Positions 225 through 59,881 of a stretch of DNA of 64,000 nt are shown here, piece by piece. Made by a program: the position numbers and the translations under genes. Each line of letters begins with the position of its first letter. Position 1 is the first letter of the stretch. The stretch comes from a virus: the IMG/VR virus record IMGVR_UViG_3300024581_002845; one strand, 5' to 3'. The notes under the pieces were generated by a model, which saw only the letters and a program-made list of their open reading frames with translations, did no database searches and was not told where the DNA came from.

Positions 225-1603
225 ATCTTAATTTTATTAAAGAATTCTTCTAATTCGGGGAACGTCTTAATAAAATCAGTCCCTCTACGTCTATCATGTT
301 CAAGAACGAACCTTTTAAAGTTTTGTCTTTCGATGATTTTATCATCACCTGACTCAGAAATAGACCAATCATAAATTCTCTTTATTTTTTCGGTTTCAAC
401 TTCTGTCATACCCATGTGTTTATTATCAAAAACAGGAACACCTAAGTAAAGTGATAACTCAGCATTGGTTAGTATTAATTCCTTATGTTCATCGGTTAGT
501 AATTTAACCGATTGATGAGCTGGATATCTTAAATAAGAAGTATCTAATAATATCGGGTGTAACCAAAATCTATCTTCATTATGGTGGTCATATTTTAATT
601 GGTGGACATTCTTTATTAGTTTGTTATAAGTAAAGGGACTCATTAGGTTATAAGTGGACATAATGGTTACCGTAACTTTAGGTAATTCACTTAATACTTT
701 ATTAAGGTTATCCCAAAATTTATTAAACTCGAGTCCATTTCTTATATACTCCGCTTGTTCACCCCACGCATCCACTGAAGTGAATAGTATTACCTCTTTG
801 ACTCTATCCTCATCTATAATTCTCTTGAGTTTCTCAATCATTCTATCGATAAGTCCGTCAACCACACCTAAATTAGAATTAATTGCAAATTTTAATTCTT
901 TATTTGGGTTTGGGTGTTCTATTATGTAGTCCAACACTTTCCATGTGTCTTTAGATAGTAGAGGTTCTCCTCCTGTAATTCTAAATGTGTTTAAGTCTTC
1001 ATAGAGTTCGGGCCACCACTTCCAAAACGCCTCGACATAAGGATTGTATTCACTCTGTAGTATGGGTACACTACCTTCCGCAACCATAGTTTCATAACTA
1101 TTAAATGATGGTTGTGTTGGATATCCTCCGTGTTCTTTCGATTCCTGAAACCATTTAGATGAATATGCGGGTCCACAATAAGAACATTTGAAGTTACATG
1201 TGTTGGTAAATGATACCTCCACGTATCTCGGATTAAAATCTGACTTCCAATCCGAGTTAACGATTTCATCGAAGTGAGGTTTAGACCACGGTTCTGAGGA
1301 TTTATAGATACGATCAGAATACACATCTGAATTATCTTCAATGTTCCAACAGTATTCACACTCGGAAGGTCTACCTCCCGTTAACATTTCCTTTCTCTTA
1401 TACTTTTTGAAGATGGTGTTGTGTAATGCCTTAGGATTTTTCTCCACCTCCCTTACGGGAATTTTATGTACACTCGGGTGGTGACATGAGTGGTTAAAAC
1501 CTGTTTGTAAATGCATGGTGACTTGTGTCCATTTTGCAAGACACATCCCACACCCAACGGAATTTAATTTATTTTTAGTCTCTTCAAAATTAGTATTTGA
1601 CAT
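221..1603 (-). CDS. Radical SAM protein with N-terminal SPASM/twitch-like Cys cluster
   Basis: CxxxCxxC motif TCNFKCSYC; ITGGEPLL; INSN; SVDA; extra Cys motifs CGMCLAKW..HSCHH and ECEYCW. Confidence 0.9.
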   Translation of the reverse strand: MSNTNFEETKNKLNSVGCGMCLAKWTQVTMHLQTGFNHSCHHPSVHKIPVREVEKNPKALHNTIFKKYKRKEMLTGGRPSECEYCWNIEDNSDVYSDRIYKSSEPWSKPHFDEIVNSDWKSDFNPRYVEVSFTNTCNFKCSYCGPAYSSKWFQESKEHGGYPTQPSFNSYETMVAEGSVPILQSEYNPYVEAFWKWWPELYEDLNTFRITGGEPLLSKDTWKVLDYIIEHPNPNKELKFAINSNLGVVDGLIDRMIEKLKRIIDEDRVKEVILFTSVDAWGEQAEYIRNGLEFNKFWDNLNKVLSELPKVTVTIMSTYNLMSPFTYNKLIKNVHQLKYDHHNEDRFWLHPILLDTSYLRYPAHQSVKLLTDEHKELILTNAELSLYLGVPVFDNKHMGMTEVETEKIKRIYDWSISESGDDKIIERQNFKRFVLEHDRRRGTDFIKTFPELEEFFNKIKI

Positions 1604-3036
1604 TACAGTTTTACGTTTAACATTTCACAATCATCGTCAAACATAATAGTTTCCACTAATTCGTATTTGAGATTAGACATTCCGTCGTTTTTATAGTCGA
1701 TTTTCTTTTGTTGCATTTCCCTAACGAATCTCTTTTCGTTCTTTGCGGTAGTTTCTCCTTGATGCCACTTACCATTAACAAAACCTAAGTCCAAATGTGG
1801 TAAACAGTAAAACTTACCATCTCTTCTATATGGTAATATGTTTTCAACGATTTCGATGTCGGTATTTCTAATTTCTACATCATTTAAAGTACCAACAACA
1901 CCATTAACCTTATCTGTGATTTTACCATCACTAATATTTTCAAAGTCGAGATCCATAACTGCACCATCACTACCACCTTCAAAGACATGTGATATCTCTT
2001 CGGGTGAGAAGAATCTATTATATACCTTACACTCGGCAATTTCACCTTTGAGTCTTGTGTTTGCTTGTGGGTCGAAACCTAAATAAAATGGATTTCTTAG
2101 ATCATATCTTAATAATCTATTATCAAAATCTAATGGTCTTTCTTCCTTTTTATTCCTAACATTGGTAGCCAACTCATCATTTACGTAACAATACATTTTC
2201 TTATTCTCCGCATCAACAGATATGGTGAGTCTTGTCCACATGTTCTCAAACCTCTTTATCCAATTATAAATCGGTGCCCTTGTCATATCAAATAATTGAA
2301 AGGTCATTGCTCTCGAGTTGTTGAATGATATTCCATAGTTGAATCCCCCACTTTTTCTAAAGATTGGGTACTCGATGAACTGTCTATCCTCATCACCCAC
2401 TAACCATATTGGAACCTTATCCTCTTGTTGTTGGGTTTTGACTAATAAGGTTATCGTATGATTCCTATTTAAGTACTCCACAACCCTCCTATTCGATGGA
2501 ATTTCAACATGAGAAGTATCTCCATTAAAGTATAACGAAGGTCTATTAGTTTTACTGTCAATTACTTTACCGGTGGTATACCCCTCATAGTAAGCCCTCC
2601 AAAACAGGTCGTCATCCTCCATACCCCAATCCCAATAATCGTTAGAATATCCGTTAGTTCTTTCAACCTGTTCCTTATTGAAAAGGATGACACCACCGAA
2701 GTATTGATCATAACTCATATCATATCCGTACTTTGATAGTTGAGTGGCGATATGTATTGGGGTCTCTTCAGGATACGAATAATCACAAGTCTCATCATAG
2801 GGTAACATATCAACATCATGCCAAGCAATGTAATCACATCCATCCTCGAACGCTCTTTTTGCTGCAATATTTTTCATTGCACCCCTATTAAATAACTTAT
2901 CATCGACTTGGTGAGCAACATAAAATTTATGATCTATACCCTGTCTATTTAAGTGTTTTCTTAAGTGGGGTACCAATTTCTTTAAGTGTTCCTCCCTATC
3001 TCTATATGGTATACAAATACCTAATTTGTGACTCAT
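1603..3036 (-). CDS. GT7 (beta-1,4-galactosyltransferase-like) glycosyltransferase with inserted LamG/ConA domain
   Basis: IPYRDR, FNRG, HDVD, YFGGV, WDWGMEDDD; LamG-like insert (SLYFNG..IAECKVYNR); GT7 C-terminal segment resumes at RRDGKFYCLPH..DGMSNLKY. Confidence 0.85.
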   Translation of the reverse strand: MSHKLGICIPYRDREEHLKKLVPHLRKHLNRQGIDHKFYVAHQVDDKLFNRGAMKNIAAKRAFEDGCDYIAWHDVDMLPYDETCDYSYPEETPIHIATQLSKYGYDMSYDQYFGGVILFNKEQVERTNGYSNDYWDWGMEDDDLFWRAYYEGYTTGKVIDSKTNRPSLYFNGDTSHVEIPSNRRVVEYLNRNHTITLLVKTQQQEDKVPIWLVGDEDRQFIEYPIFRKSGGFNYGISFNNSRAMTFQLFDMTRAPIYNWIKRFENMWTRLTISVDAENKKMYCYVNDELATNVRNKKEERPLDFDNRLLRYDLRNPFYLGFDPQANTRLKGEIAECKVYNRFFSPEEISHVFEGGSDGAVMDLDFENISDGKITDKVNGVVGTLNDVEIRNTDIEIVENILPYRRDGKFYCLPHLDLGFVNGKWHQGETTAKNEKRFVREMQQKKIDYKNDGMSNLKYELVETIMFDDDCEMLNVKL

Positions 3037-4286
3037 ATTTGAACTGTTAATTTTCTATAACCCTTAAGGTTCTTATCTTTTATTAATTCATATTCTAAAC
3101 TATTCAAACCCTCATTAGTAAAATCGTTTAATCCTTGTTTTACTATGTTGTTATAATAGATTTGATTACTTCTCGTTTCCTTATGTATCCAATTCTTTTC
3201 TACTGATGCATTATTGTCATGGTATAACTCCCTAAAAATCCCATGCCTTCTTATTGGTTTAGGTATCGATGTCGAATGGTTAATTTCTCGATCGGTTACT
3301 TGTGACTTATACATCGTTAGATCTGTTGTTGAACATTTAAGACCATTCAACTTTAGGGTTATTAAGTTCATATCAAACTCAACTCTTTCCTTATCTGAAA
3401 TAGATCCCACATACATAAACTTATTTTGTAAATCTAATATATCGTTATCCATTGTAACCTCACCAACAAACACGTCATTCATAAACATAGAAAGGTTTCT
3501 ATCTTTTTTAATGATTCTAAATGATGATGTGACATCATCTAAAACATCAGTGGTGATTGAATAGGGTTTCTTATCCTTATCGAAGACCTGAAAAAAGAAT
3601 CGGTTGAATGAGTTATAGAATAGACCTATATTATAACCCGGTATACAAATTAATGGGTACTCATCATATTCTTTATTTTCGTTAAAGTACCTTGAATTAA
3701 CTTTAATTGTTGTATCAATATTGAAATCGTTGGTTAAGAAGTCTTCTTCTATCTCAACTCTGCAGTACCCATCCTCGATAATCTCGACAGAATACTTACT
3801 GTAATTGTCCACACCAACTTTCTCGGTGTCGAAGAATAAACCACCATGAGTAACTCTATGGAATAAGTCGTCATCTTCGAATCCCCATCCCCAATAGTTA
3901 TTTGAATATCCGTTGATACCAATGAAGTCCTCGGTGTTAAAGATGGTTACACCGCCGAAATATCTAAACAATATATCACCCTCTTTATTCTCAACTTTAG
4001 AAACTAATGATGTTGGGTATTTTGGATAACTGTAGTCCACATCGATAGGTAATAAATCAACATCATGAAAGCATAAGTAATCGAACCCTTCATCAATTGC
4101 AATTTTAGATCCAATATTTAGAAGTTTACCTCTATTAAAAGGTCCGTTATCCGACTGTTCCACCACGAATATTTGATATTCCTCTATCCCATTTTGGGGT
4201 AGGAAATCACTCATATACTTAATGAACGTTCTAAGATGGTTGGGTCTATCCCTATACGGTACTATTATCGCCAGATTCTTCTTCAT
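3033..4286 (-). CDS. GT7 glycosyltransferase with inserted LamG-like domain (paralog 2)
   Basis: ATG at 4286 (MKKNLAIIVPYRDR) preferred over the track start; FNRGKLLN, HDVD, WGWGFEDDD; C-terminal RRHGIFRELYH..EGLNSLEY. Confidence 0.85.
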   Translation of the reverse strand: MKKNLAIIVPYRDRPNHLRTFIKYMSDFLPQNGIEEYQIFVVEQSDNGPFNRGKLLNIGSKIAIDEGFDYLCFHDVDLLPIDVDYSYPKYPTSLVSKVENKEGDILFRYFGGVTIFNTEDFIGINGYSNNYWGWGFEDDDLFHRVTHGGLFFDTEKVGVDNYSKYSVEIIEDGYCRVEIEEDFLTNDFNIDTTIKVNSRYFNENKEYDEYPLICIPGYNIGLFYNSFNRFFFQVFDKDKKPYSITTDVLDDVTSSFRIIKKDRNLSMFMNDVFVGEVTMDNDILDLQNKFMYVGSISDKERVEFDMNLITLKLNGLKCSTTDLTMYKSQVTDREINHSTSIPKPIRRHGIFRELYHDNNASVEKNWIHKETRSNQIYYNNIVKQGLNDFTNEGLNSLEYELIKDKNLKGYRKLTVQI

Positions 4287-4491
4287 ATTCTCGTTTTGGT
4301 CTATTTGTCCCACCAATAGTCTTGGCTTTGCTTAATTCATAAAACTCATTTAGGTACCATTCAAGTCTTTGGGACCATGATGCGGTATCTAATTCGTAAA
4401 CAAAATTGTTTATTCCTTCTAATGAATCCGCAATTCTTTCGAGAGCTTCTACACCCCTCTTATTTAAATTCTCTTTATCAGATGTCGCCAT
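4252..4491 (-). CDS. Hypothetical protein, 79 aa
   Basis: Fills the gap in the operon and overlaps both neighbours. Confidence 0.6.
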   Translation of the reverse strand: MATSDKENLNKRGVEALERIADSLEGINNFVYELDTASWSQRLEWYLNEFYELSKAKTIGGTNRPKREYEEESGDNSTV

Positions 4492-5203
4492 ATTTTAGTC
4501 TTTTATTTAATATTAAATTATTTTTGATGGTCTCGAATACCTTCTCTTCGGGACTATCCAATTCCACTTTCCATTCAGAATCTTCTATGTGATTTTCTAT
4601 TTCAGAAAGTCTATGGTCAATAACCTCCACCTTCTTATATAAGTCGTCATTTTCCGCACTTATGGTAGAAGTGTTTTTATGTATGTCTTCGATATCGGAT
4701 TCTAAAGACTTAATCTCAAAATATTCCCCATCGACAATACCATTTCGTTCGGTTTCCAATTTTTTAATTTGGTCGTATTCCTCCTGTACTTTCCTTTGTA
4801 GTTCCTCCTCTATGGATTTTATATTTTCATAATGTTTTTCAATGGAAGAATTTAAGGTGTCCTCAGTTTCTTTTATAGTGTCGTAATGTTCCCTTACCTG
4901 ATCCCACTTTTCATTTACAATATTCGGTGACTCTTCTAACCTCTTGACGTTCTTATTAATTTCATCGAATAAGACCTTTTTTTCTTCTTGTAATTTCAAT
5001 TTTACGGACTTACTCTCGTCCGTTTTAAAAACAAAATCGTAGATGTTAGATTCATTAAGATTAGATTCGAGATACAATAAAAAGAGTGACACCACAACAG
5101 ACCAATCATCAGATTCATATCTGATATTTTCTAAGGTGTCCGCAAACCCCTCCAATTTATTAACTACGGGTTCCGTAAACTCTATGTAACTATCTTGTAC
5201 CAT
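4478..5203 (-). CDS. Coiled-coil hypothetical protein
   Basis: E/K-rich heptad character; operonic position. Confidence 0.65.
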   Translation of the reverse strand: MVQDSYIEFTEPVVNKLEGFADTLENIRYESDDWSVVVSLFLLYLESNLNESNIYDFVFKTDESKSVKLKLQEEKKVLFDEINKNVKRLEESPNIVNEKWDQVREHYDTIKETEDTLNSSIEKHYENIKSIEEELQRKVQEEYDQIKKLETERNGIVDGEYFEIKSLESDIEDIHKNTSTISAENDDLYKKVEVIDHRLSEIENHIEDSEWKVELDSPEEKVFETIKNNLILNKRLKYGDI

Positions 5204-6549
5204 TCTGTGTTATCATCATATGTTGTTTTATTCAGGACTTTGTAATTAATTGAGTTCAACCCATATTTCTTACTATCTATTTTACCTTCTAATAAATCCA
5301 TATAGGTTAGTTTGTTTTCAATTATGTCAGGATCATAGGTATCGATTAATTCTTCGAATTTTAATCCTTCGATATCAAACTGACCTTCCTTCCTGTTCGG
5401 AGTGTATATTTCTGTGGGATCCTTAAAATGAAATTTCGTTTTAATATCAATCATTCCACCAATCTGCCATACCGATGCGGTCATATCTAATAATACGGAA
5501 TTTTCCTTAAAAAGACAAGGTTTTCTAAGATCTAACCAATCCGCATCTATACCATAATAGTATTCTTTACTGATCTCAAAATCATTTAATTTTCTCTTAA
5601 ATAATTTAAAATCATATAGGTTAATAAAGTTGTGGTTGTCAACATCGCCTATCAACAATGTCGCAGACCTAACCCTTAACTCGCCATGATAGGTAATCTC
5701 TTCACTTAGGTTTGAATTGACGTATATATAAACAGACTTATTCTCACTATCATGTGTCACCACAAAATGATTTAATACTGATAAATCAAGATCTTTAATT
5801 TCGATTTGGAACATATTCATATCGGTATTGAACATTTGAACAATCACCTGATTGTCGTTAGAGAATACTTGAAAATCCCAACCATTATGTGTCCTAAAGA
5901 AGGTGTTCTTATTTATGGGGATTTCATCTTCCCTGTAAAAAAATGAAATAGTAAAATCATCCAATAGATCATTCGACGGTTTAGTCATAAAAATAGATTT
6001 AGGTTGTAATGAAATCAACGAACCATATCTACTTATCTTCCTATCTTTAAAATCTGTTTTGAATATTTCATTATTAGAGTATCCATACTTTTTGTTCATT
6101 TTAACCTTGGATGTTGCACACCTGTGTAGGAGATCTAAATCAATATATCCTTTACCCCAATAATCATTTGAAAATCCATTAATTTCGTCAAATACGTCTT
6201 TTGGAAATATCACAACACCACCAAAGAACTGTTCGTAGGGTAAGTCAGTACCATCACCTTCTCTATATCCAAATATTTGAGTGGGGGTGTCCACATAATA
6301 GTATTCGGAACTATCGTTCTTAGGTAGTAGATCAACATCGTGGAAACAGAAATAATCGAAGTTGTCTTTAATTTCATTTACAACCGCGTTACATAATTTA
6401 CCGTAATTGAAGGGTCTATCGTCAGATTGCTCCGCAACAAATATTTTATAGTCTATTTGTTTATTAGATAAAAACTCCACCATATGTGGTAGGAATACGT
6501 CTAACTCGTCTCTTCGGTCTCGATATGGTACTATTAATGCTAATCTCAT
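5182..6549 (-). CDS. GT7 glycosyltransferase with inserted LamG domain, degenerate catalytic motif (paralog 3)
   Basis: IVPYRDR, FNYGKL, HDVD, FFGGV; WGKGYIDLD replaces WGxGxEDDD; LamG insert FTISFF..HFVVTHD..YVNS. Confidence 0.8.
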   Translation of the reverse strand: MRLALIVPYRDRRDELDVFLPHMVEFLSNKQIDYKIFVAEQSDDRPFNYGKLCNAVVNEIKDNFDYFCFHDVDLLPKNDSSEYYYVDTPTQIFGYREGDGTDLPYEQFFGGVVIFPKDVFDEINGFSNDYWGKGYIDLDLLHRCATSKVKMNKKYGYSNNEIFKTDFKDRKISRYGSLISLQPKSIFMTKPSNDLLDDFTISFFYREDEIPINKNTFFRTHNGWDFQVFSNDNQVIVQMFNTDMNMFQIEIKDLDLSVLNHFVVTHDSENKSVYIYVNSNLSEEITYHGELRVRSATLLIGDVDNHNFINLYDFKLFKRKLNDFEISKEYYYGIDADWLDLRKPCLFKENSVLLDMTASVWQIGGMIDIKTKFHFKDPTEIYTPNRKEGQFDIEGLKFEELIDTYDPDIIENKLTYMDLLEGKIDSKKYGLNSINYKVLNKTTYDDNTEWYKIVT

Positions 6550-7400
6550 ATACTCACAATCTTTCTGATTAGTTTATCCCAATGTCTGTACGAACTAAAA
6601 TTAGGTTTATTAGATTTTAAAAACATAAAATCCCTATCTCTTAAATTCACTTTAAAATTTGTGGATTTAAGTTCGTTATACATTGTCATGTATTCTTTTG
6701 AGAATGCATAAGGTTGGTTTAACTCACCAACACTTTTCAATCTTTCCTTTACTGTTTTATCCCACTTAAAATGGTGTACCTGTACTGAGTAGTCTTGGAA
6801 TGGAGCTATGATTGGATGGTTCCATCCCTGCCATCTCCATGTGGTATGTCCATCGATAATTGCATAGTGTTGACCATTGGTTAATTCCACATCACCTCTC
6901 ATCACACAAACTTTGTTAGGACAAGCATTACTGAGTGGGTATCTGAAAAATCCCGCATAAGGGAATTGTTCAAATAGAGAAATATCTTTTTGTATTTCAG
7001 GAAACTCACCATTCTCCCCCACTCGGTCAATGAAACCACCTCTCACCATAGTCCAAAGGTTATCTTCACATTCATCAATGATTTTGGATAGGTCATTATT
7101 GGGGTATAGGTGGAATTCATCAATATCGGCAACTACCCACCAATCCTTTTTATTCTTAGATTTTATCATGTTGTATAATATGGTTACTTTCTCCCAATCA
7201 TACACTCTATCCCTCACAACCTTTACAATTTTTGCATTGTCGTATTGATTTATAATTGATTTAGATCTATTAAGAATCCTCGGGGACATCTCAGATTCGT
7301 ATATCACAAATTGTATCTCATCAACGAACTTGGAATAATGTTCGATGAAGTGGGGTAACAATTCATAACCATGACCTAAGACACAAATTAACCTTATCAT
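6546..7400 (-). CDS. GT-A fold glycosyltransferase (GT2-like/Glyco_tranf_2_4-like)
   Basis: LLPHFIEHY, WWVVADIDEF, HHFKW motifs. Confidence 0.7.
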   Translation of the reverse strand: MIRLICVLGHGYELLPHFIEHYSKFVDEIQFVIYESEMSPRILNRSKSIINQYDNAKIVKVVRDRVYDWEKVTILYNMIKSKNKKDWWVVADIDEFHLYPNNDLSKIIDECEDNLWTMVRGGFIDRVGENGEFPEIQKDISLFEQFPYAGFFRYPLSNACPNKVCVMRGDVELTNGQHYAIIDGHTTWRWQGWNHPIIAPFQDYSVQVHHFKWDKTVKERLKSVGELNQPYAFSKEYMTMYNELKSTNFKVNLRDRDFMFLKSNKPNFSSYRHWDKLIRKIVSI

Positions 7401-8467: not shown

Positions 8468-9189
8468 CTTTTCTTCACTAATGTTAATCCTGTTGATGAT
8501 GGTTTATCCTTAAGATTCCCAAAATTGAATAGGTTCATAACTGTCCAATCTTTATTCTCTTCTAATTCACTTATTAATTTAGATGGACCATCGAAGGGGA
8601 AGAAATCCTTTTTTGCATCTTCAGATGTAATTAAAGTTTCGGAATATGAAGAGTCAGTATCATGTATTAAAACGAGACCGTTTGGATTCAGTCTTTTCGT
8701 ATACAGATCAAAGTCTTTCTTCACACCTTCGTATGAATGGTCACCATCTATGAATAGTAGGTCAATCATAATATCTTCTCTAACGAAGAAATCATAATAC
8801 GCCCTTTCTGATGTTTCTTTTATAAATCGAGGATAGAAGGTTTTTTGGTAGAACCCATCCATGTCACAAACATTACTCTCCCCACCAATACCATTACATG
8901 GGTCAACAAGAAATGTTGTTCCTATATCTCCCCACGAATAGGTGTCGTTACCTTCAAATATTCCCTGTTTGTGTAAGTCTATTCTCGCTTGTGTCATTAT
9001 TCTTGGGATGTACCCACCCCCTGTACCAATACAAACACAATTTTTATATCTCATGTGTTGTATTAGTGAATAAACGATAATCCCATCACCCATGTGAGAT
9101 GATGTTGCACCATGAGTCCACAGAAACGGTAATTTATCACCATCATCTGTAGTTATATATTTCTGTATATATTCTTGGTTCGTTATCAC
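8464..9189 (-). CDS. Class I SAM-dependent methyltransferase (Methyltransf_24-like)
   Basis: CIGTGGGY motif I; IDLLFIDGDHSYEGVKKDF..GLVLIHDT. Confidence 0.85.
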   Translation of the reverse strand: MITNQEYIQKYITTDDGDKLPFLWTHGATSSHMGDGIIVYSLIQHMRYKNCVCIGTGGGYIPRIMTQARIDLHKQGIFEGNDTYSWGDIGTTFLVDPCNGIGGESNVCDMDGFYQKTFYPRFIKETSERAYYDFFVREDIMIDLLFIDGDHSYEGVKKDFDLYTKRLNPNGLVLIHDTDSSYSETLITSEDAKKDFFPFDGPSKLISELEENKDWTVMNLFNFGNLKDKPSSTGLTLVKKR

Positions 9190-9923: not shown

Positions 9924-9930
9924 AGGTAAT

Positions 9931-9959: not shown

Positions 9960-9961
9960 GT

Positions 9962-12802: not shown

Positions 12803-12805
12803 ATC

Positions 12806-12813: not shown

Positions 12814-12822
12814 TTCAATCTA

Positions 12823-51643: not shown

Positions 51644-53935
51644 TTAAAAATCTATTTTAATAGAAAATACTTGAGTTCCGACACGTTTTACGGGTGAGGA
51701 TGTTTTAGCATTAACTAAAATTTCTTTGTTTTGATCCAATAGTGCAACCTCAGTAACGTATTTGTCATTGACCCTCGCAGCATTACTGTAGGTTGGGTTC
51801 TGTGTTTGATTCCATTGGCTATGTGGTAAGTTTACTAAAAATCTCATCTCCTCGATATCAGTACATCTAACTAATTTTATCGATCCGGGGAACGTTTGTT
51901 CATCACCAAACTGTGGTTCGTTTGTAGATGTTTCTGTACCTAAGTATTCGTTATCTGTTGATGTATTTACTACGTGATCTTCGAAGTCAAACAACGATCC
52001 GTTGTCAATATCTGCACCTGTAATAATAAAACTATTTTCTCTTAAGTTAGTTGGGTTAATTAAATTACCGACCGTGTGGTTTGGGATCATTGATGTGATA
52101 TCTATCTTGGTCCATTGTGATGGATCAGGTAATTTATCGTCGTATTCCGTTGTTTCCTGTACAAGAACATAAAGTCTATCAGCAATATACCCTTGGGTTA
52201 CGTCTGTGAATGATGTTTTTAAGTGTTGGAACGATCCTATTCCGTTCGGATGGTCAACCCCTCCCCATTTTATTGCGATGTTTGCGGGATAATTAATTTC
52301 ACACTCACCCTCTACCACATTAACCTGTACTTTACTAAAGTTATTACATGGAAGACCATTTAATTGAGTGTCTCCACTATATTCTAACATATATGAAATC
52401 CAATAGGTTTGACTTGTGGATCCACTAAATGCAGCATCCGCTATTGCACCGTCACTTGGTACATGATAAACTTTAGGTGTTGGTAATGTATGTCTTCTAT
52501 TACTTCTGTAATCTAATAATGCAACCATTTCTTGATCATCAAAAACAATCACTTTTTTATCTACGAAGACTTTACCCACCTTCTCACCTATCTCATCTAA
52601 TAGGTATCTATATTTAATATATTTCGTTCTAATATCACCGGGTCTACCCGCCACTGTAGAATCTAAGTAATAGTCAGTGGTATCCATTTTAAACTCAGCA
52701 CCAATCGTGGTTCCTGTACCATTCTCATAATAGATGTATGGTATATAGACATTAAAGAATTCAACGTCTGTTACAATATCTTCATCGACAAGTACTCCAT
52801 CGGTAGTTGAACTACCTATGTAATCATCGTATTTAAAAAATCTATCAGGATCATCATATATGTGACCTAACTGTGAGTAATGAATTACCGCAATACATTT
52901 TTGTTCTTCAGGAGAGACTGTTATTGTTTCCCCATATGAATTTGTGTACGTTGTTCCCGTATTGGTAACTTGACCTTCTGATGTTCCGTATCCAAGATAT
53001 TCTTTTGTGGATATGTGTTTAGCACTTGTAAAACCACTAATACTTTCATCTGTACCATTCACGTCAGAACCAATTGGTTTTTCACTCCACACGACGTTTA
53101 AACTCCATGGATCGTGTTGTTCACTTGGGTCTACTTGATTAGATACACAAGCATCCGACACTTCTAAATTCAAAGGGTTTTCAATTCTACAATCATTTTT
53201 AATAACTTGAGCAAACCCCGAAATAGATGATAGGTCAGGTGTTGATCTATCTAAATATAGTGTTGTTTGACCCGTAATTACCTCATCACAATTTGGTGTT
53301 GTTGTACTACCTGTAACTGTTGTTGATCCCGTAACTCTATAAACTAAACTCATTGAGTTACCTGAAATGACTTGGTCTTCATTTAATAATTCATTTCCAA
53401 ATGCCACTGTTATGTATTCAGTATCATTAAAACTATGTAGGAGTAGTAAATCTGTATCTGTTTGAGTAACTCCACTACATGTACCATAGTTAATGGTCTC
53501 TGTAAATGTGATAGTATTGGTACCTGTAAAACCTGACAGTGGTAATCTAACACTTGTACATTCTATAGTAGTTCCCGAACATTCCGCGGCATCATATTCT
53601 TTATACTCTGTAACAAATCCCGCGGGACCCATTCCATTCCTAATCGTTGTTGTTATAGAGTCCATAATTGGAACACCGTAGGTTGTTGAATCAGAATCGA
53701 TTGTTAATTTATATGGGTATTTTACTTGGGAGTCTTTATCAAAAGGCGCAAATACATTTTGTTGTGGAGTATCCTGTACACCATCTAAAGAATTAAATGG
53801 GACAGTATAGTCAAATTCAGAATCCCCTACTTGGAAAAATTTAATTTGAAAGTTTCCCTCTGCAATGGATTTTCTACCCTTTTGGGTTAATCTTGCTGAG
53901 AGAAATTCTGCATTATTTTGACTTAGGAAACTCAT
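51644..53935 (-). CDS. Large virion (baseplate/tail-collar-like) protein
   Basis: N-term LTQKGRKSIAEG..FQVGDSE and C-term YVTEVALLD resemble tail-collar fibre motifs; TATTTATT variant upstream. Confidence 0.6.
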   Translation of the reverse strand: MSFLSQNNAEFLSARLTQKGRKSIAEGNFQIKFFQVGDSEFDYTVPFNSLDGVQDTPQQNVFAPFDKDSQVKYPYKLTIDSDSTTYGVPIMDSITTTIRNGMGPAGFVTEYKEYDAAECSGTTIECTSVRLPLSGFTGTNTITFTETINYGTCSGVTQTDTDLLLLHSFNDTEYITVAFGNELLNEDQVISGNSMSLVYRVTGSTTVTGSTTTPNCDEVITGQTTLYLDRSTPDLSSISGFAQVIKNDCRIENPLNLEVSDACVSNQVDPSEQHDPWSLNVVWSEKPIGSDVNGTDESISGFTSAKHISTKEYLGYGTSEGQVTNTGTTYTNSYGETITVSPEEQKCIAVIHYSQLGHIYDDPDRFFKYDDYIGSSTTDGVLVDEDIVTDVEFFNVYIPYIYYENGTGTTIGAEFKMDTTDYYLDSTVAGRPGDIRTKYIKYRYLLDEIGEKVGKVFVDKKVIVFDDQEMVALLDYRSNRRHTLPTPKVYHVPSDGAIADAAFSGSTSQTYWISYMLEYSGDTQLNGLPCNNFSKVQVNVVEGECEINYPANIAIKWGGVDHPNGIGSFQHLKTSFTDVTQGYIADRLYVLVQETTEYDDKLPDPSQWTKIDITSMIPNHTVGNLINPTNLRENSFIITGADIDNGSLFDFEDHVVNTSTDNEYLGTETSTNEPQFGDEQTFPGSIKLVRCTDIEEMRFLVNLPHSQWNQTQNPTYSNAARVNDKYVTEVALLDQNKEILVNAKTSSPVKRVGTQVFSIKIDF

Positions 53936-53985: not shown

Positions 53986-54831
53986 TTATTGTTGACAATG
54001 TAAGAAATCACTACAACCATCAACTACTGCTTCCCTCGATATATAGGCAGTCTCACTATCAACCGCCGCTTGGTAATTTATATCTATTATGGTTCCACAA
54101 TACGTTGCACTGCCACAACCCGCACTTGCGTATATAAATTGTACAACATCCCCAACACTGTAGGAACTGATAGGTAAAATAAAATTACCCCCTTGACATT
54201 GCATATCTTGAGGTGCGTGGAAATCAAATCCATTTACACAGTCTTGGATTCTATAATATGATTCCTGTGGATTTAATGTTCTTGTTGGTGTATTTGTTGG
54301 TTCTAATGTTGGTAGTGGTGTTGCACTATCGGTTGGGTTCGGTGTTGGTTCGTTTGTTGGATTTGGAGTTGGTTCGTTTGTTGGATTAGGTGTTCCTTGT
54401 GGTGTTGATGTGGGGTTTGCTGTTTTTTCAGGTGTAGGTTGAGGAGTTGCATTAGGTGTTGATGTTGGTGCATTCGTTGGTAAAATAGTTGGTGTTGGAT
54501 TAGGTGTTGGGTTTGGTGTTGCAGTAGGTTGTGGTGGAACGTGTTCCATAAAAGATACACATAGATCACAATCAACTCTCGGAGATTCGATATATATATC
54601 TTGTTCGTGACACCCATCACTCTGTAATCTTATACCGAAGGATAATAATTCATCATCAACATAAAATTCAAGAGGTGAAGTGTTTACTTCAGGAAATGTC
54701 AATACAGGTTCTTCAGTGAACCCCCAATTACTTGTGTCCCCACTTGTGGTTCCTGTATATACATTAACAGGAAAATCACTAATACTGTGATTAGGGTCTG
54801 TACTTAAACCTATTCTAATTAACTTACTCAT
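53986..54831 (-). CDS. Mucin-like Pro/Thr stalk protein with C-terminal Cys-rich domain
   Basis: ~95-aa PT tract; C-term DC..C..VGDVVQF..C..ATYCG..DGC..C. Confidence 0.75.
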   Translation of the reverse strand: MSKLIRIGLSTDPNHSISDFPVNVYTGTTSGDTSNWGFTEEPVLTFPEVNTSPLEFYVDDELLSFGIRLQSDGCHEQDIYIESPRVDCDLCVSFMEHVPPQPTATPNPTPNPTPTILPTNAPTSTPNATPQPTPEKTANPTSTPQGTPNPTNEPTPNPTNEPTPNPTDSATPLPTLEPTNTPTRTLNPQESYYRIQDCVNGFDFHAPQDMQCQGGNFILPISSYSVGDVVQFIYASAGCGSATYCGTIIDINYQAAVDSETAYISREAVVDGCSDFLHCQQ

Positions 54832-54834
54832 CTA

Positions 54835-56010
54835 TTAACAACTTGGAACGTTATATCCTAAATTATTCATTGCACTAACTATTAAATCGGCATAGTATTG
54901 TGGGGTAGATCCCGCGATTACATCTTGGACACCCGAGACTTCATTCTTGTCACTCAATCCCGAAGTACCTGCATAATACCCAAGACCATTAAATACCGCA
55001 TTTATGAAATTTTGGTACTGTGGGTAGATATCCTGTCCACCTGATAATGTATCTACTTGGAAAATTATACCTCTATGGGATGTTGGTGTTGTTGCATTAT
55101 CCAATTCGTTTCTAAGTTGTGCAATATCCGCATCACCACTTACACTACCATCGGTCCACCCACTCACAGTTATTCTTTCCGCTTCATATCTATTATTACT
55201 TTCATCAGCAAAGGCCAAGTTCACCACATTATACGAAGGATTTGATGGTGGAGTTGCAATCCATTGAATTGCCCTTTCATCATTTTTATTAGTAATCGTT
55301 ACTCTTTGATTATATAAACTCACATCGTTATTATAGAATGGTAATAAACAGTTCTGTAGTATGTTATCCCTCATATTAACAAGTGGGGATAATGTTGTAT
55401 TCATCGAACCTGAACTATCAAAGAATATATTAATCTCAGTTTCCGTATTAATTAAAATCGTGGGTGTTGGTGTTGGTGATGGTTGTACTGTTGATTGTGG
55501 TGTTGCCGTTGGGAATTGTGTTGGTGTGGGGTTCGGTGTTGCAAATGGTGTTGCTGTTGGTGGTGCGGTAATCTCTAATGTGGGGTATGGTGTTGGAGTT
55601 GGACATGTGTCAGGGTCATAAACCACTTCAAAAGATATTCTATCATAACACTCAAAGGTCTTAGAATCATTTATATATATATTTTCAACTATATATCTTG
55701 GTGTATTATCACCATCACATAGACTAATCACATTAACATTATCTTCTAATTTCAACCAATACTGAGTGTCAAACTCGATGTCATGAAAAACAATTTCAGA
55801 AGGTTGTGGTGTTCCATTTGTTATTAATGGATCATTATCTCCAATGTATATGGGATAATCTCTATAATTTCTCGCATTTGATGATGGCCAAGAACCATTT
55901 GCGGTATTTGGGTTGTTCAAAGGTGTGAATGGTCCATAAGGAGATAACCCAATACTTAAATCAAAGTTATTAGGTGATTCAATATCATAAACACGAATTA
56001 ATAGTCCCAT
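54835..56010 (-). CDS. Pro/Thr stalk protein with C-terminal vWA-like domain
   Basis: PT tract followed by INIFFDSSGSM (MIDAS DxSxS); TATTTATA at 56017-56024. Confidence 0.7.
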   Translation of the reverse strand: MGLLIRVYDIESPNNFDLSIGLSPYGPFTPLNNPNTANGSWPSSNARNYRDYPIYIGDNDPLITNGTPQPSEIVFHDIEFDTQYWLKLEDNVNVISLCDGDNTPRYIVENIYINDSKTFECYDRISFEVVYDPDTCPTPTPYPTLEITAPPTATPFATPNPTPTQFPTATPQSTVQPSPTPTPTILINTETEINIFFDSSGSMNTTLSPLVNMRDNILQNCLLPFYNNDVSLYNQRVTITNKNDERAIQWIATPPSNPSYNVVNLAFADESNNRYEAERITVSGWTDGSVSGDADIAQLRNELDNATTPTSHRGIIFQVDTLSGGQDIYPQYQNFINAVFNGLGYYAGTSGLSDKNEVSGVQDVIAGSTPQYYADLIVSAMNNLGYNVPSC

Positions 56011-56053
56011 ACTTCATATAAATACTTACGAATAGACTTTATATATAAAACAA

Positions 56054-56497
56054 TTAAGATAAAAGGTTAATGTATTTTAAGATCTTTTCTTTAAATTGTC
56101 CATGGTAATCGTATTTATCAAAATCATAGTTTTCTAAAATGTTTTTGTAATGATTTAAGTAACTATCCTTACTTCTAATTTTAATCTCTTGATCATTAAT
56201 TGTTTTAGTGATGTAGTTAGGGTAATTCATATCCAAATACACATCAATGAACTCTCTATTGGGCATCGTAATAAACATTCTTTTCTTTTCTCTAAAGGGT
56301 GTTCTCTCACCATTTTCATTTATTTCATACTCCCCCAAAGATTTTAGTTTATTAAAAACCTCTTCATCTATAACAATAATGTCAACTTCTCTTTTTCTTG
56401 ATTTTATATCAATTCCATGATGAATCATTGATCTTGACCCTACAAGGACAAAATCACCCCCAATTAAATCGTATATTTCTTTAATTAAATGATCCAT
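56054..56497 (-). CDS. Putative nucleotidyltransferase-fold protein
   Basis: LVGSRSM..EVDII..IDVY resembles the GS/DxD/D pattern; start MDHLIKE. Confidence 0.45.
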   Translation of the reverse strand: MDHLIKEIYDLIGGDFVLVGSRSMIHHGIDIKSRKREVDIIVIDEEVFNKLKSLGEYEINENGERTPFREKKRMFITMPNREFIDVYLDMNYPNYITKTINDQEIKIRSKDSYLNHYKNILENYDFDKYDYHGQFKEKILKYINLLS

Positions 56498-56522
56498 AAA
56501 AAAAACCCTCAATGAGGGTTTT
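56498..56522 (-). terminator. Intrinsic terminator
   Basis: AAAACCCTC-AAT-GAGGGTTTT with A8/U8 tract. Confidence 0.7.
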
Positions 56523-56527
56523 AATTT

Positions 56528-58585
56528 TTATTGTGGTGTTGATGTTGGTTCAATACCTTCATTGAGTTGGTTTCCTCCACCACCATCACCTGAACAATCG
56601 ATTTGACCGATATCAGTAACTTGTCCATTAATATCAATCACTATGTACCGTGGTCCTATTACTTGTGTAGAACTCGCATTTTGTTGTTCGCTTACAAAGT
56701 AATATCTCGATGGGTTACCCGGATATGGGTTACCTGAACTATTGTAAACCGTAGTACCTACCAATAAGTTGATACTTGATGCACTTGATGTTATCAATGT
56801 ACCCGCCAAGAAACTTTCACAGAAATCACTTACCGCGAATCTTGCAGTAGAGATATAGAAGTTATTTTGTGTCAGTGTTTGTGTAGGTTCCGGTGTTGCT
56901 GGTGGTGTGTTCGTTGGTGCCGGAGTAGTTCCTGTCGAACATGGACCTTCAGCCGTAACATCTGTTGTGTTTTGAGCCGAAACCGTACCTGTTTGTGCAC
57001 AGAACGTACCATATCCTCCCGGAGGGAAACTAAATGATGCTGGATTACCACTACAATCTGTGTAAATTATCGTTCTATCGGGGTCACCGAATGAACCTGA
57101 ATCACTGTAGCTGTATTCCGTACATGATACCGCCGCTGTTGGAGATGCAGTTGGGTTAGGGGTTGCTTGTGGTGTAGACGTAGGTCCTACTCCACCACCT
57201 GATGTACAATCACCCTCTAATGATATGTTAGTTGTACCGAATACTGCTGATGCCGATCCTTGTTCTGCACAGAATATACCATATCCTCCCGGTGGGAAAC
57301 TAAATGATTGTGTATTACCCTCACAATCAGTGTAATTTATCATTCTATCAGGAACACCGGCCGATGCTGAATCGTCGTAACTATATTCCACACAGACAAG
57401 TGCCTCGGTTGGAGTTGGTGTTAGTGTTGGTTCAAGAGTTGGTGTTGCCGTTGGTGGTTGCCACACACATGGTGCTGTTGTACACACACCTCCTTGTGGT
57501 AATAAGTTTACATCAACAGGGTATACCGATGTTGTATTACTAAATGAATCCCAATATTGAGGTGTGATTGTTGAACACACACCGAAGATTTGTGATGTAC
57601 CCGTATCAAACGACATCATCTGATTAAAAGTAGATTGTTCTATACCATTCACAGGGTGGTTCCATCTAAGACCGAATCTCTCAGTATCAAATGGAGCATC
57701 ATTACCCACCTCAACAAATTCACAATATCCAACAGGTGTTAATGTTGGTGTTGATGTTGCAGTTGGTGTTGGTGTTTCGGTTGGTTCGGGGTCAAAGACA
57801 CAATCAGTATCCTTAAGACAAACACCTCCATTACCTAAATCTACAGTTAATATACCATCAATAGGTGTTACTGTATTACTTTGTTGATCCCAAACACTTG
57901 GTGTTAACGTACTACATACAGAAACAACAGATCCTTCCATGTTGTTGTAGGTGTAAGGAACGCTAAGCATACTATTAAACGCCTGATTAGTTAATCCATT
58001 TTCAGGGTTATTCCATCTAAGTCCTGTTCTTGCACTATCAACTTCGGGTGATACCCAAATGTTGAAACACGTACCGCTTATTTGTTCGGTTGGTGAAGGT
58101 GTCGGTGTTGGTGGTAGTGTTACGGTTGTACTCGGAGTTGGTGTTGGTGTATCCGCAGTTGGGCTTGGTGTTGGTGTTAATGTTTCAGTTAACGATGGTG
58201 TTGGTGTTGGTGTGTTTGGTGTTTCAGTTACAGTAACGGATGGTGTTGGTGTTAATGTTTCAGTTAACGATGGTGTTGGTGTTGGATCATTAGTTGCGGT
58301 TGGGAACGGTGTTGATGTTGGGTTCGCAGTTAACGGATATTCAACAAAATATGTTGGACAATCCGATTGTACTAATGGGTTGGTATTAACTAAAAAGACA
58401 CTCGTGGCATTATCAGGTACACTAACTAAAACACCATTTTGAACCTGTGTTAATGTTAGGTTTTCCGCCAAATCCGAGGTACCGTATATGGTAGCAATGT
58501 TATTACTATCAATTGATGTGTGATAAATCGTGTATGGTCCTGAGTTCGTTCCTGATGTTAACGTGACCGTAAAATGTCTTGCCAT
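56528..58585 (-). CDS. Multi-module mucin-like virion protein (PT linkers plus duplicated Cys-rich domains)
   Basis: Two GLRWN..VCST.TP..WD..GGVC and two [23 protein letters not shown] modules; TATTTATA at 58607-58614. Confidence 0.8.
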
Positions 58586-58639
58586 GTTCTTTTTTTTTAT
58601 ATACTTTATAAATATCGTAGAATTACAAAATGTCCTGAT

Positions 58640-59239
58640 TTAAACAGGATCATCGAAAAATTCTTCTATTGTCCCCGCTAATTCACAATCCAATGTTGCG
58701 GTTGGACTTGGTGTTGGTGGTAATGTTGATGTTAAAGTTGGACTCGGAGTAGGTTCATTAAACTCAACCACCGAAATAATCATATCACAATCTGTCTGTT
58801 CTACAACTGAGATAGTCATATCGCAATTAGTTTGTTCCACAACTGAGATAGTCATGTCACAATCTGTCTGTTCTACAACTGAGATAGTCATAGTACAGTC
58901 TAATGCGAACATTTCGACGACAGAGATTCCAATATTACAATCTAAAGGTGGTGGTGTTGGATTTGGTGGACATTGTTCACAATCTATGTTTAATAATTGT
59001 ACCTGAAATCCACCCTGTTTTTTAGGATTTTCCGATGGTGGTGGATCAATATGTCCATCACAGTGTTCAACAAAAACGTAAAGTGGTCCCGTGTAACTAC
59101 CTCCGTCCCAAGTATGTGGTAAACTGTGTGTTCCTAATACATTTGCATTATCTATATTATATGTAGTACCTGTATATATGTTGTATTGATCACATACACC
59201 GTTATCGTATAGATTTGTAATGGTAATTAGTACACCCAT
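58640..59239 (-). CDS. Cys/PT-rich protein with 12-aa tandem repeats
   Basis: (D/N)C.MTISVVEQT repeats; TATTTATA at 59257-59264. Confidence 0.75.
   Translation of the reverse strand: MGVLITITNLYDNGVCDQYNIYTGTTYNIDNANVLGTHSLPHTWDGGSYTGPLYVFVEHCDGHIDPPPSENPKKQGGFQVQLLNIDCEQCPPNPTPPPLDCNIGISVVEMFALDCTMTISVVEQTDCDMTISVVEQTNCDMTISVVEQTDCDMIISVVEFNEPTPSPTLTSTLPPTPSPTATLDCELAGTIEEFFDDPV
58762..58943. repeat. 36-bp in-frame tandem repeat (4 near-perfect copies plus a degenerate one)
   Basis: ACAACTGAGATAGTCAT..CAAT..GT.TGTTC units. Confidence 0.85.
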
Positions 59240-59289
59240 GAGTTTTTACTTCTTATTATAAATACTTTGTTAGAAGGATTACTTTAAAT

Positions 59290-59316
59290 AAAAAAACCCA
59301 CCGAAGTGGGTTTTTT
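59290..59316. terminator. Intrinsic terminator with cUUCGg tetraloop, possibly bidirectional
   Basis: A7-CCCAC-CGAA-GTGGG-T6; the minus strand reads CCCAC-UUCG-GUGGG-U7. Confidence 0.85.
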
Positions 59317-59335
59317 AATATAGTCTTTGTTTTTA

Positions 59336-59881
59336 TTATAATTCGTTATCACACGATCCTCCAACCTCACTGATTGTAGAATCCGCCAAGGCGATGACAT
59401 CTTGTGAGAATGAATAAATTGTACTTTGGTATAATGAATTACCCGCATTAACGGTAATATTATCACCTGCAACAGGATTTGGTGTTCCTCCTTTTTGAAT
59501 CCAATCGGCATTTGAGATAATAACAGTTTGTGGCGATTCACCATTGAGACTGTTACATTTTTGGAATTGGTGATTGGTTTCAGGGTTGTCGTCTCTCACT
59601 GTTGGTGACGGTGTAGGTCCGGGAGTATCTCCCTCACAATTATCTAATCCCGTCCACGGAACTGAGTTAGGACATGTTCCTGTTGATGTTACAGTACCTC
59701 CTGAAATGGTATCTGCAACTTGATACGTCACACCATTTATTAGGTCTTGTTTACTTACCCCCGTAGCAATAGTTGTATTTGCTGGGGACCCATTACAATG
59801 TATCCCTACGATTGTAAAGTTATCTGCCTCTGTGGTTCCCGTAAATTGGGACTGCATCGTAAATGTTACTTGATATGCCAT
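59336..59881 (-). CDS. Small virion protein with short PT linker
   Basis: IATGVSKQDLINGV..TSTGTC domain plus TPGPTPSPT; TATTTATA at 59909-59916. Confidence 0.7.
   Translation of the reverse strand: MAYQVTFTMQSQFTGTTEADNFTIVGIHCNGSPANTTIATGVSKQDLINGVTYQVADTISGGTVTSTGTCPNSVPWTGLDNCEGDTPGPTPSPTVRDDNPETNHQFQKCNSLNGESPQTVIISNADWIQKGGTPNPVAGDNITVNAGNSLYQSTIYSFSQDVIALADSTISEVGGSCDNEL

Follow-up and report, generated by a model that had tools for sequence, protein, structure and literature searches.

The stretch of DNA analysed here, called the window below, is 64,000 nucleotides of the IMG/VR virus record IMGVR_UViG_3300024581_002845. Its 53 substantial open reading frames (ORFs) all lie on the minus strand (GC about 35%). 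One end of the window carries a cassette of glycosyltransferase (GT) genes, in which three GT7 enzymes contain a LamG domain or a homologous insertion. The other end carries a block of genes for proteins with long Pro/Thr (PT) tracts. The initial annotation had joined the two into one mucin-type O-glycosylation system, in which the GT7 enzymes act on the PT proteins, and had proposed their co-occurrence across related phages as a check. In this check, each was found without the other. The three GT7 genes are as follows.

1603-3036, minus strand: GT7 (beta4GalT-like) GT with LamG nested in the catalytic fold (Pfam, PDB match, AF2, Foldseek)
3033-4316, minus strand: second GT7 paralogue with a homologous insertion (Pfam GT7N/7C; 31% identity across alignment A1)
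5182-6549, minus strand: third GT7-LamG paralogue (Pfam GT7N, GT7C, Laminin_G_3)

Pfam recognised Glyco_transf_7N and 7C in all three ORFs, at 71-83 bits (7N) and 48-69 bits (7C) against cut-offs of 27 and 23. Laminin_G_3 was called in the first and third ORFs only; the second aligns over its full length with its LamG-bearing paralogues. Residues 3-156 of the 1603-3036 product match beta4GalT7 and beta4GalT1 in the PDB with E 2e-35 (2.1e-35 for beta4GalT7), and the second piece of the GT7 fold resumes at residues 420-463. Thus, the LamG domain is nested inside the catalytic fold. A model made with AlphaFold2 (AF2) from an alignment of 39 sequences has a pLDDT (predicted local distance difference test) score of 89.8. 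With this model, Foldseek retrieved beta4GalT7 and beta4GalT1 at 39-41% identity and a root-mean-square deviation of 1.2-2.3 Å, and the LamG insert retrieved concanavalin A (ConA)-like jelly roll and pentraxin folds. The HDVD and EDDD motifs are kept: H73, D74, D76, and D141 are invariant among the 39 sequences, and E140, D142, and D143 are nearly so. GT7-LamG is an active-looking enzyme. The fold and both motifs are shared with the animal enzymes B4GalT7 and B4GalT1 of CAZy GT7 (PDB 3lw6, 4irq, 6fwt, 1nf5). Unlike these, the phage enzymes have a nested jelly-roll LamG of about 250 residues and no predicted membrane anchor, and their genes are triplicate within a phage operon of radical SAM (S-adenosylmethionine) and methyltransferase genes. 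GT7-LamG has 249 confirmed relatives in IMG/VR, and of 4116 candidates in a protein collection, 1682 are relatives at E <= 0.001; a search of 50,697 deposited phage records gave no match. The structurally solved relatives of GT7 use xylose (Xyl) or N-acetylglucosamine (GlcNAc) acceptors, not peptides.

The lectin-bearing GT7 enzymes, the accessory GTs, and the methyltransferase that the initial annotation had seen are borne out, the GT7 enzymes by Pfam, the PDB, and AF2/Foldseek and the others by Pfam. The term "mucin-type" does not hold in its animal sense, since GT7 enzymes are homologues of beta4GalTs, which act on sugar acceptors, and not GT27 initiators. In animals, mucin-type O-glycosylation is associated with the GT27 polypeptide N-acetylgalactosaminyltransferase (ppGalNAc-T), which has a C-terminal ricin lectin domain, and no such domain set is present in the window. 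Pfam detected no GT27-type initiating transferase among the 53 ORFs, and the lectin-like domain is the LamG in the GT7 fold.

The best 80 of the 249 confirmed IMG/VR relatives of GT7-LamG were used to define the surrounding gene cluster ("80 loci"). GT7-LamG is present in all 80, and the radical SAM gene, two GT7 genes, the GT2-like gene, and the methyltransferase gene recur in 68-80 of them. The other genes of this glyco-island in the window are listed below.

221-1603, minus strand: N-terminal-twitch radical SAM enzyme of the cassette core (NCBIfam NF033640, 341.5 bits, cut-off 170; in 73 of 80 loci)
4478-5203, minus strand: coiled-coil-like ORF specific to the window phage (only weak sub-threshold Pfam matches; in 1 of 80 loci)
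6546-7400, minus strand: GT2-like GT (Glyco_tranf_2_4) of the cassette core (Pfam PF13704, 27.9 bits; in 70 of 80 loci)
7397-8467, minus strand: DUF6734 protein (Pfam, 71.5 bits; without a PDB sequence relative)
8464-9189, minus strand: class-I SAM methyltransferase (Methyltransf_24) of the cassette core (Pfam; in 68 of 80 loci)
9186-9923, minus strand: conserved protein between the fibre genes and the cassette, LLDAD motif conserved (in 23 of 80 loci; alignment A5)
12823-13470, minus strand: Anp1-like GT travelling with a fibre gene (Pfam PF03452; PHROG 1574, 34859)

A sixth core family follows the radical SAM gene; its clusters c6, c11, and c12 are related (hhalign probability 94-99.5%) and together occur in 66 loci. 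The variable part of the island includes NDP-sugar epimerases/dehydratases (32 loci), a TPP-E1-like gene (26), a dTDP-sugar isomerase (25), and aminotransferases (10), as well as UDP-glucose dehydrogenase, carbamoyltransferase, APS kinase, an Asp/Asn hydroxylase (4 loci), and PhyH (3 loci). An IMG/VR contig that is 100% identical to the window and extends past its start (L001) encodes at least three further radical SAM enzymes, of which two exceed the NF033640 cut-off, along with a 2-oxoglutarate (2OG) oxygenase and a DegT/LegC-like aminotransferase. No transmembrane (TM) segment was predicted in any island protein of the window, and no phosphoglycosyl transferase or other lipid-carrier initiator, flippase, or polymerase was found among 68 recurrent island clusters. 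Sequence and profile searches of the PDB gave nothing significant for the DUF6734 protein, the GT2-like protein, or the 9186-9923 family, and no significant match for the family after the radical SAM gene (alignment A4), which showed weak ConA-like hints at E 0.02. A literature search on N-terminal-twitch radical SAM enzymes in phages returned nothing relevant.

Two complete genomes and one long fragment pair were informative about the link between the cassette and the PT tracts, together with a complete genome syntenic with the window. The latter, G002, is an IMG/VR record of 335,630 bp rated 100% complete and has homologues for 41 of the 53 window proteins. G008 (245,436 bp, with direct terminal repeats, complete) and G009 (198,534 bp, rated 100% complete) have homologues for only 14-15 of the 53. 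The fragments G016 and G017 overlap at 99.998% identity and represent 186 kb of one phage of the window lineage. The cassette proteins of G008 (positions 89.6-95.7 kb) and G009 are 47-60% identical to those at window positions 221-9189, while the other full-length proteins common to the window and G008/G009 are only 26-45% identical. This excess identity of the cassette suggests that it moved horizontally between huge-phage lineages.

The block of PT proteins and its borders are arranged as follows.

51644-53935, minus strand: conserved 763-aa protein at the downstream edge of the block (145 IMG/VR relatives; no Pfam or PHROG family)
53986-54831, minus strand: PT-linker protein, tract at residues 96-183 (N-domain common to orthologues)
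54835-56010, minus strand: PT-linker protein with a conserved N-domain, an invariant PTPT linker start, and an exchangeable C-domain (alignment A3)
56528-58585, minus strand: protein of 685 aa in which five PT linkers separate small Cys-rich modules (its N-domain family is the largest, with 40 members)
58640-59239, minus strand: PT-linker protein with a 12-aa tandem repeat (tract criterion)
59336-59881, minus strand: marginal, only a 9-residue TPGPTPSPT stretch (tract criterion)
59955-63944, minus strand: SprB/cadherin-repeat structural protein upstream of the block (Pfam SprB, E 5.5e-75; PHROG 26672 "virion structural protein")

A PT tract was defined as a stretch of 20 residues that contains 6 or more Pro and a total of 13 or more Pro, Thr, and Ser. 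Four ORFs pass (53986-54831, 54835-56010, 56528-58585, and 58640-59239). Of the "at least five" PT proteins counted in the initial annotation, these four are clear, and the fifth (59336-59881) is marginal. A DNA pattern coding for PTPTP has 6 matches in the window and none in a shuffled sequence; thus, the PT tracts are not due to chance. The DNA tandem repeats within the tracts are short and degenerate, so that they have not expanded recently. From 145 IMG/VR relatives of the 763-aa protein, 79 loci were kept, and at least one PT ORF lies upstream of the homologue in 73 of them. In these loci, 189 of 1301 plus-strand ORFs are PT ORFs, compared with 7 of 1385 in the 80 GT loci. The N-domains preceding the first tract do not form one family: 101 unique N-domains fall into clusters of 40, 17, 11, 6, 6, and 4 members, and of the 15 possible pairs of clusters, hhalign detects a relationship in just one (94% probability). 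In alignment A3 (the 54835-56010 family), the N-domain is conserved and the P-T-P-T start is invariant, while the linkers have very different lengths and the C-domains are unrelated. An ESM Atlas search with the 56528-58585 product retrieved only viral clusters without names, at scores below 0.9.

Some further features of the block were observed. A 152-aa ORF inside it (56054-56512) has no PT tract and no family, and its product has no homologue in G002, G008, or G009. A 36-bp tandem repeat at 58776-58892 (3.2 copies) encodes the DC(D/T)MTISVVEQT unit of the 58640-59239 protein. The distal modules of the PT proteins (53986-59881) are Cys-rich, and a phage thioredoxin gene lies at 30246-30551. 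A DSSGS motif in the distal domain of the 54835-56010 protein looks similar to the MIDAS site of vWA domains; it has no Pfam support.

One more PT tract lies outside the block, in an extension that the initial annotation had described as made only by frameshifting.

38974-39263, minus strand: slippery A10 run, followed by a PT-containing -1 frame extension of 95 codons, in the gene of a protein with four TM segments that adjoins the amidase

The sequence layout for such a frameshift was confirmed in the window. The ORF at 39249-40523 encodes the four predicted TM segments and stops right after the A10 run (T10 at 39253-39262 on the plus strand), inside which lies the slippery sequence A_AAA_AAA; the -1 frame then stays open for 95 codons to 38977, PT tract included. 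In the G002 orthologue (at about 216.6 kb, 48% identity), the A10 run and the stop are found again, and the -1 frame is likewise open. Its -1 tail is an acidic linker instead of a PT-rich one and ends in the same R-N-V-x-x-S-x-R-R motif. G016 (at about 42.3 kb) has a fused form that runs in one frame through an A10C run and includes a long PT tract. Thus, the window and G002 need a -1 shift or an extra A to make the tail, while G016 has it in frame. The slippage site is conserved, and the longer product is predicted to arise by programmed -1 frameshifting or by transcriptional slippage. The protein may be a two-isoform lysis (holin-like) protein. It is not an obvious part of the virion, and the PT tract of its tail appears to be an interchangeable linker. 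Since PT tracts are also found in a membrane protein of this kind, where an orthologue has an acidic linker in their place, they are first of all linkers. The anatomy seen in alignment A3 is that of an anchor, a spacer, and an exchangeable tip.

Does the cassette need the PT tracts? G008, G009, and G002 all carry the cassette. PT ORFs number 0 of 281 in G008, 2 short ones of 202 in G009, and 9 of 365 in G002. The PTPTP-coding pattern, calibrated on the same genomes, has 67 matches in G002, none in G008 or G009, and none in shuffled sequences. When it was applied to 27 records, 12 had matches, while all six records with the G008-type flavour of the cassette (816 kb together) had none. Conversely, G016/G017 have kept the PT block, and no GT7 gene was found in their 186 kb, while GT7 is present in the other fragments that cover the syntenic spot (G012, G013, G014, G015, G018, and G019). 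The specific pairing of the GT7-LamG cassette with PT-tract proteins therefore does not hold as proposed. Judging from gene content, the cassette is independent of PT tracts, since it persists in complete genomes poor in them.

What the glyco-island does accompany is the fibre module.

9962-12802, minus strand: three fibre-module proteins, the last with LamG (Pfam, 12128-12802; PHROG 8510 "virion structural protein", PHROG 24074)
15181-16410, minus strand: LamG-bearing fibre-module protein (Pfam, PHROG 8510)
17201-26956, minus strand: tail fibre of 3251 aa, 24% Ser+Thr, that carries an S74 chaperone domain at its C-terminus (Pfam PF13884, PHROG tail-fibre families)

The fibre genes of the window (9962-29893) abut the cassette. 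Among 48 loci with at least 5 kb of sequence upstream of the methyltransferase gene, an S74 fibre ORF ends within 6 kb upstream in 21, and any fibre-like ORF lies within 7 kb upstream in 44, a count that includes a loose criterion (at least 500 aa and at least 20% Ser+Thr). The Anp1-like GT gene adjoins the S74 fibre gene in G002 and in a further locus (L040). At the syntenic spot of G016, after Ser/Thr-rich fibre-like ORFs, there is a different island in place of the GT7 cassette (about 63-77 kb; L203:3053-16886). It encodes GT2, GT25, GT11, and two GT10 enzymes, FkbM and other methyltransferases, DegT, and a GDP-mannose dehydratase with an epimerase. In this respect, the glyco-island resembles an exchangeable cassette that follows the fibre genes, with the fibre module as its stable partner. 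Since the island stays with the tail-fibre genes while its content is swapped, it would most likely make a variable glycan for fibre or other virion proteins.

I also found candidate enzymes for the PT tracts in relatives of the window phage. The PF11397 family, which I take to be CAZy GT60, would comprise polypeptide and hydroxyproline alpha-GlcNAc transferases. A PF11397 GT is present in five records of the window lineage: G002, G006, G007, and G011 (126-226 bits), and G001 (248 bits), which is the nearest relative of the window phage in the comparison set. It is absent from the complete genomes G008 and G009 and was not found in the fragments G010, G012, G013, G015, G016, G017, G019, and G025. 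In G006, the gene order is a PT protein of 811 aa, a collagen-repeat protein of 794 aa, PT proteins of 187 and 334 aa, the PF11397 GT, a GT25, and HtrL. The 794-aa protein inside this PT block (L213:11545-13929) has collagen triple-helix repeats (Pfam E 6.6e-23). From 179 IMG/VR relatives of the G006 enzyme, 80 loci (83-100% identity) were kept. In all 54 that have at least 3 kb of upstream sequence, a PT ORF of the same orientation lies no more than 5 kb upstream, in most cases as the immediate neighbour, and the upstream DNA of these loci forms 32 groups at 90% identity. No PDB relative of the G006 enzyme was found. G007 encodes a 799-aa protein (L214:5590-7989), a natural fusion that joins the two GT families: PF11397 is combined with a GT7 domain that lacks LamG, and some 280 residues at the C-terminus have no family match. 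The PF11397-led island of G001 includes a GT_PLOD domain. In protists, GT60 includes the hydroxyproline GlcNAc transferase of Skp1 and the polypeptide GlcNAc transferases that start mucin-type glycans, according to the available parts of PMC8724618 and PMC6939170.

A second set of genes was found in other relatives. A 2OG oxygenase of 350-399 aa (cluster 46) occurs in exactly 4 of the 80 GT loci (L041, L052, L063, and L066). In all four, the gene immediately before it encodes a protein with long alternating Pro repeats, (TP)n or (APTP / PNVTPQVTPA)n. Its PDB relatives are all peptidyl prolyl 4-hydroxylases (P4Hs): those of B. anthracis (E 7e-21) and Chlamydomonas (1.7e-12), human P4HA2, and that of PBCV-1 (2.3e-8). 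In L052, L063, and L066, the P4H gene is followed by a GT of the HPAT (hydroxyproline O-arabinosyltransferase) family and a PF11397 "GlcNAc" GT, and then by the GT7 cassette. An IMG/VR scan with the P4H gave six loci, all with a Pro-repeat ORF immediately upstream. Including L041, the P4H gene follows a Pro-repeat protein gene in 7 of 7 distinct contigs (L041, L052, L063, L066, L300, L303, and L304), which fall into three groups (88-100%, 40%, and 26% identity), and HPAT-like and/or PF11397 GTs stand alongside it in six of the seven. L303 and L304 have the P4H, a fused PF11397 and HPAT-like protein, and a PIG-L deacetylase behind glycine-rich fibre-type proteins. The HPAT matches (PF23452) score 41.7-42.6 bits in L052 and L063, above the cut-off of 23.9, and L066 has an 89%-identical orthologue; the fusion of L303 scores 23.6 bits, just under the cut-off. 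The collagen-type P4H was not found in G002, G008, G009, or G016/G017. The Pro-repeat proteins of L052 (337-1986), L063 (368-1987), and L066 (263-1966) have a C-terminal region of about 170 residues, with Cys as its first residue and ...VHN as its last. This region looks like a self-cleaving domain of the Hint/intein type; weaker copies were seen in G008, G009, L055, L075, and L107.

It is a well-founded hypothesis that the Pro/Thr-rich proteins of this phage group may be glycosylated by enzymes other than the GT7 cassette. More generally, protein glycosylation by soluble enzymes that the phages themselves encode is likely in this group. From the initial proposal that the phage glycosylates its own proteins, the general part is retained, with soluble enzymes and with PT or Pro-repeat proteins beside protein-type GT genes in relatives, while the specific pairing of GT7 with the PT tracts is not.

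The explanation that I prefer, tentatively and at a little less than an even chance, is that the window holds two independently conserved modules: an island that builds a glycan on fibre or other virion proteins, and PT linkers that would be glycosylated, if at all, by PF11397 or P4H-HPAT enzymes. In the first module (221-13470 and on past the window start), soluble cytoplasmic enzymes would build and tailor a glycan. The three GT7 enzymes may extend a sugar acceptor, which the LamG domain beside the active site probably holds; the GT2-like and Anp1-like enzymes, and possibly the 9186-9923 protein, may add more sugars; and the methyltransferase and the N-terminal-twitch radical SAM enzymes may edit them. 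The variable glycan would be added to fibre or other virion proteins before assembly. In the second module (53986-59239), the PT tracts are, as the alignment shows, extended linkers that connect a conserved anchoring N-domain to exchangeable distal domains. O-glycans may plausibly be attached to them, though not by the GT7 cassette in particular. Fitting glycosylators would be the PF11397 GlcNAc-transferase island and, in other relatives, P4H together with HPAT-like and PF11397 GTs. These sets lie outside the window, and their presence in the window phage is presumed from its nearest relative.

Several points weigh against this explanation. Neither PF11397 nor a collagen-type P4H was found in the window or L001. 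The 2OG oxygenase of L001 (12196-12951) was considered as a collagen-type P4H and rejected, since its profile is nearest to the ribosomal prolyl hydroxylases OGFOD1 (E 1.9e-7) and Tpa1. In G001, G002, and G011, the PF11397 gene has no PT neighbour, and no PF11397 homologue was found within 10 kb on each side of the 79 window-type PT-block loci. The 54 loci of the G006 clade are close relatives (GT 83-100% identical), and the co-occurrence of PF11397 and PT tracts across complete genomes comes from two lineages, that is, from one contrast. The AF2 model of the 54835-56010 protein (alignment A3) has a pLDDT of 49 and is not usable for a fold search. PT linkers are common in unglycosylated bacterial proteins, and soluble GTs can also act on lipid-linked host glycans.

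How do the other explanations compare? One that goes further than the preferred one would credit huge aquatic phages with a eukaryote-like cytoplasmic O-glycosylation of their own Pro/Thr-repeat proteins: P4H and GT60-like enzymes (with an HPAT-like one in some) would start on hydroxyproline or Thr, GT7 enzymes would extend, with LamG as a built-in clamp for the acceptor, and radical SAM enzymes and methyltransferases would edit. The PT linkers would then be turned into mucin- or extensin-like stalks of fibre and adhesin proteins, with the window cassette as the elongation and tailoring arm and the PT block as one substrate. I regard this fuller scheme as possible but on the doubtful side. Alternatively, the PT tracts may be plain unglycosylated spacers or recombination joints, the island may decorate only fibres or another non-PT target, and the PF11397/P4H genes of relatives may be a separate story without bearing on the window phage. 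This is a serious though unlikely alternative. It agrees with the -1 tail, which is PT-rich in the window and G016 and acidic in G002, with the swapping of C-domains at the invariant PTPT joint, and with the lack of PF11397 near the window-type PT blocks. It is opposed by the tight adjacency of PT or Pro-repeat genes to GT or P4H genes (54 of 54 loci and 7 of 7 contigs) and by the PF11397 gene in the nearest relative G001. The simple scheme of the initial annotation, in which the PT tracts at 53986-59881 are direct substrates, in the mucin manner, of GT7-LamG together with the accessory GTs and the methyltransferase, is very unlikely. Both modules are core to the window lineage and lie about 48 kb apart in G002 as in the window, and the fusion in G007 shows that GT7 and PF11397 domains can work together. 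Against this scheme stand the cassette in G008 and in all six records of its flavour, the PT block of G016/G017, the sugar acceptors of the structural relatives of GT7, and the missing GT27-type enzyme.

Two targets other than virion proteins have also to be considered. The island may remodel the host envelope (lipopolysaccharide, capsule, or S-layer glycan) during infection, which is quite unlikely. O-antigen GTs are often soluble, and sugar-nucleotide genes are abundant in the islands. Similar clusters of GT10, GT11, GT25, and sugar-epimerase genes in cyanomyoviruses are read in this way in the available text of PMC12801897. But neither the 68 clusters nor the window island were found to include a phosphoglycosyl transferase as initiator, a flippase, a polymerase, a ligase, or any TM protein, and envelope remodelling leaves unexplained both the consistent position of the island behind the fibre genes and the protein-type families of the sister islands (P4H, HPAT-like, PF11397, and GT_PLOD). 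Least probable, to the point of being hardly credible, is a hypermodification of phage DNA by transfer of sugars onto hydroxymethylated bases. DNA glycosyltransferases with the GT-A fold exist in phages, as the accessible part of bioRxiv 10.1101/2023.12.21.572611 describes; a Thymidylat_synt-family gene was found in 3 of 4 relatives searched, and the methyltransferase has a weak PHROG label as a DNA methyltransferase. However, the island has no cytosine C5-methyltransferase, TET/JBP, or thymidylate synthase-like gene, and Tet_JBP was detected in 0 of 5 near-complete cassette genomes (in a search without a positive control). A ThyA-like gene is absent from the complete cassette-bearing G002 and lies far from the cassette where present, and the GT7 fold is closest to that of sugar-acceptor enzymes.

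The preferred explanation, glycosylation of virion proteins by enzymes of the phage, has parallels in other viruses. The chlorovirus PBCV-1 and mimivirus glycosylate autonomously, with cytoplasmic GTs of viral origin accompanied by methyltransferases and rare-sugar pathways, and mimivirus modifies its fibrils and collagens. The P4H of the window relatives matches that of PBCV-1 (PDB 5c5t) at the E value given above, and collagen-repeat and GT_PLOD/GT25-type genes occur in the sister phage islands. Unlike PBCV-1 and mimivirus, the window phage group consists of bacterial viruses, and P4H was not found in the window. Plant HPATs act on Pro-rich proteins of the extensin type; the phage HPAT-family genes come right after those for the P4H and the Pro-repeat protein, in a few relatives of the other cassette flavour only. 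The order of P4H and then GlcNAc transferase in these relatives mirrors the Skp1 pathway of protists, in which Gnt1 is the GlcNAc transferase. The protist polypeptide GTs are those of Dictyostelium and T. cruzi (PMC8724618, PMC6939170). In the phages, PF11397 stands beside PT tracts (G006) or P4H (L052 and L303), and it is long PT or AP repeats that would take the place of Skp1 as substrates. Among bacteriophages, virion glycosylation has been reported in mycobacteriophages (Freeman et al. 2023, as cited in the available text of PMC12619734). There, soluble phage-encoded GTs beside structural genes are thought to decorate virion proteins, and GT genes adjoin structural genes in the window as well. 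The window phage differs from the cited mycobacteriophages in host phylum, GT families, island size and variability, radical SAM tailoring, and a neighbourhood of fibre instead of capsid or tail-tube genes.

Virion glycosylation is known in giant eukaryotic viruses and mycobacteriophages, and large aquatic phages have many GT islands. The present analysis separates two modules that looked like one system and offers enzyme-substrate pairs: a Pro-repeat protein with P4H and HPAT-like/PF11397 GTs, and PT-linker proteins with a PF11397 GT. If true, this would be the first hydroxyproline- or protist-mucin-type glycosylation in a bacterial virus, would explain stiff, protease-resistant, and antigenically variable phage fibres, and would be a source of new soluble enzymes for glyco-engineering. 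In the searchable literature, no paper was found that pairs "hydroxyproline O-arabinosyltransferase" with "bacteriophage", and "GT60" with "phage" gave only unrelated papers.

The window belongs to a large tailed phage according to a Pfam and PHROGs scan, which identified a sigma-70-type factor, NusG, ClpP, and primase, as well as SbcC/D-like proteins, a Dam-type methylase, the amidase, the S74 tail fibre, and the SprB/cadherin-repeat protein. The best deposited relatives of the SbcC-like protein are from metagenomic huge phages (25% identity). The phage is uncultured and aquatic, with a genome of probably about 330 kb, as deduced from the length of the syntenic complete genome G002. In the available text of PMC12619734, freshwater "moraphages" have four core GT groups, predicted Bacteroidota hosts, and a sigma factor. 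Being large and aquatic, having many GTs, and encoding a sigma factor are common to the moraphages (PMC12619734) and the window phage. Large cyanomyoviruses have clusters of GT and sugar-epimerase genes (PMC12801897), and like the window phage they encode many GTs. As far as their available text goes, the two papers propose generic host-surface or DNA roles for GTs (PMC12801897, PMC12619734). Outside the island, two adjoining cytidylyltransferase-like genes lie at 48167-49043 of the window (RfaE domain II- and TagD-like in NCBIfam, both below the cut-offs), and their products could activate a sugar phosphate or glycerol phosphate for a glycan.

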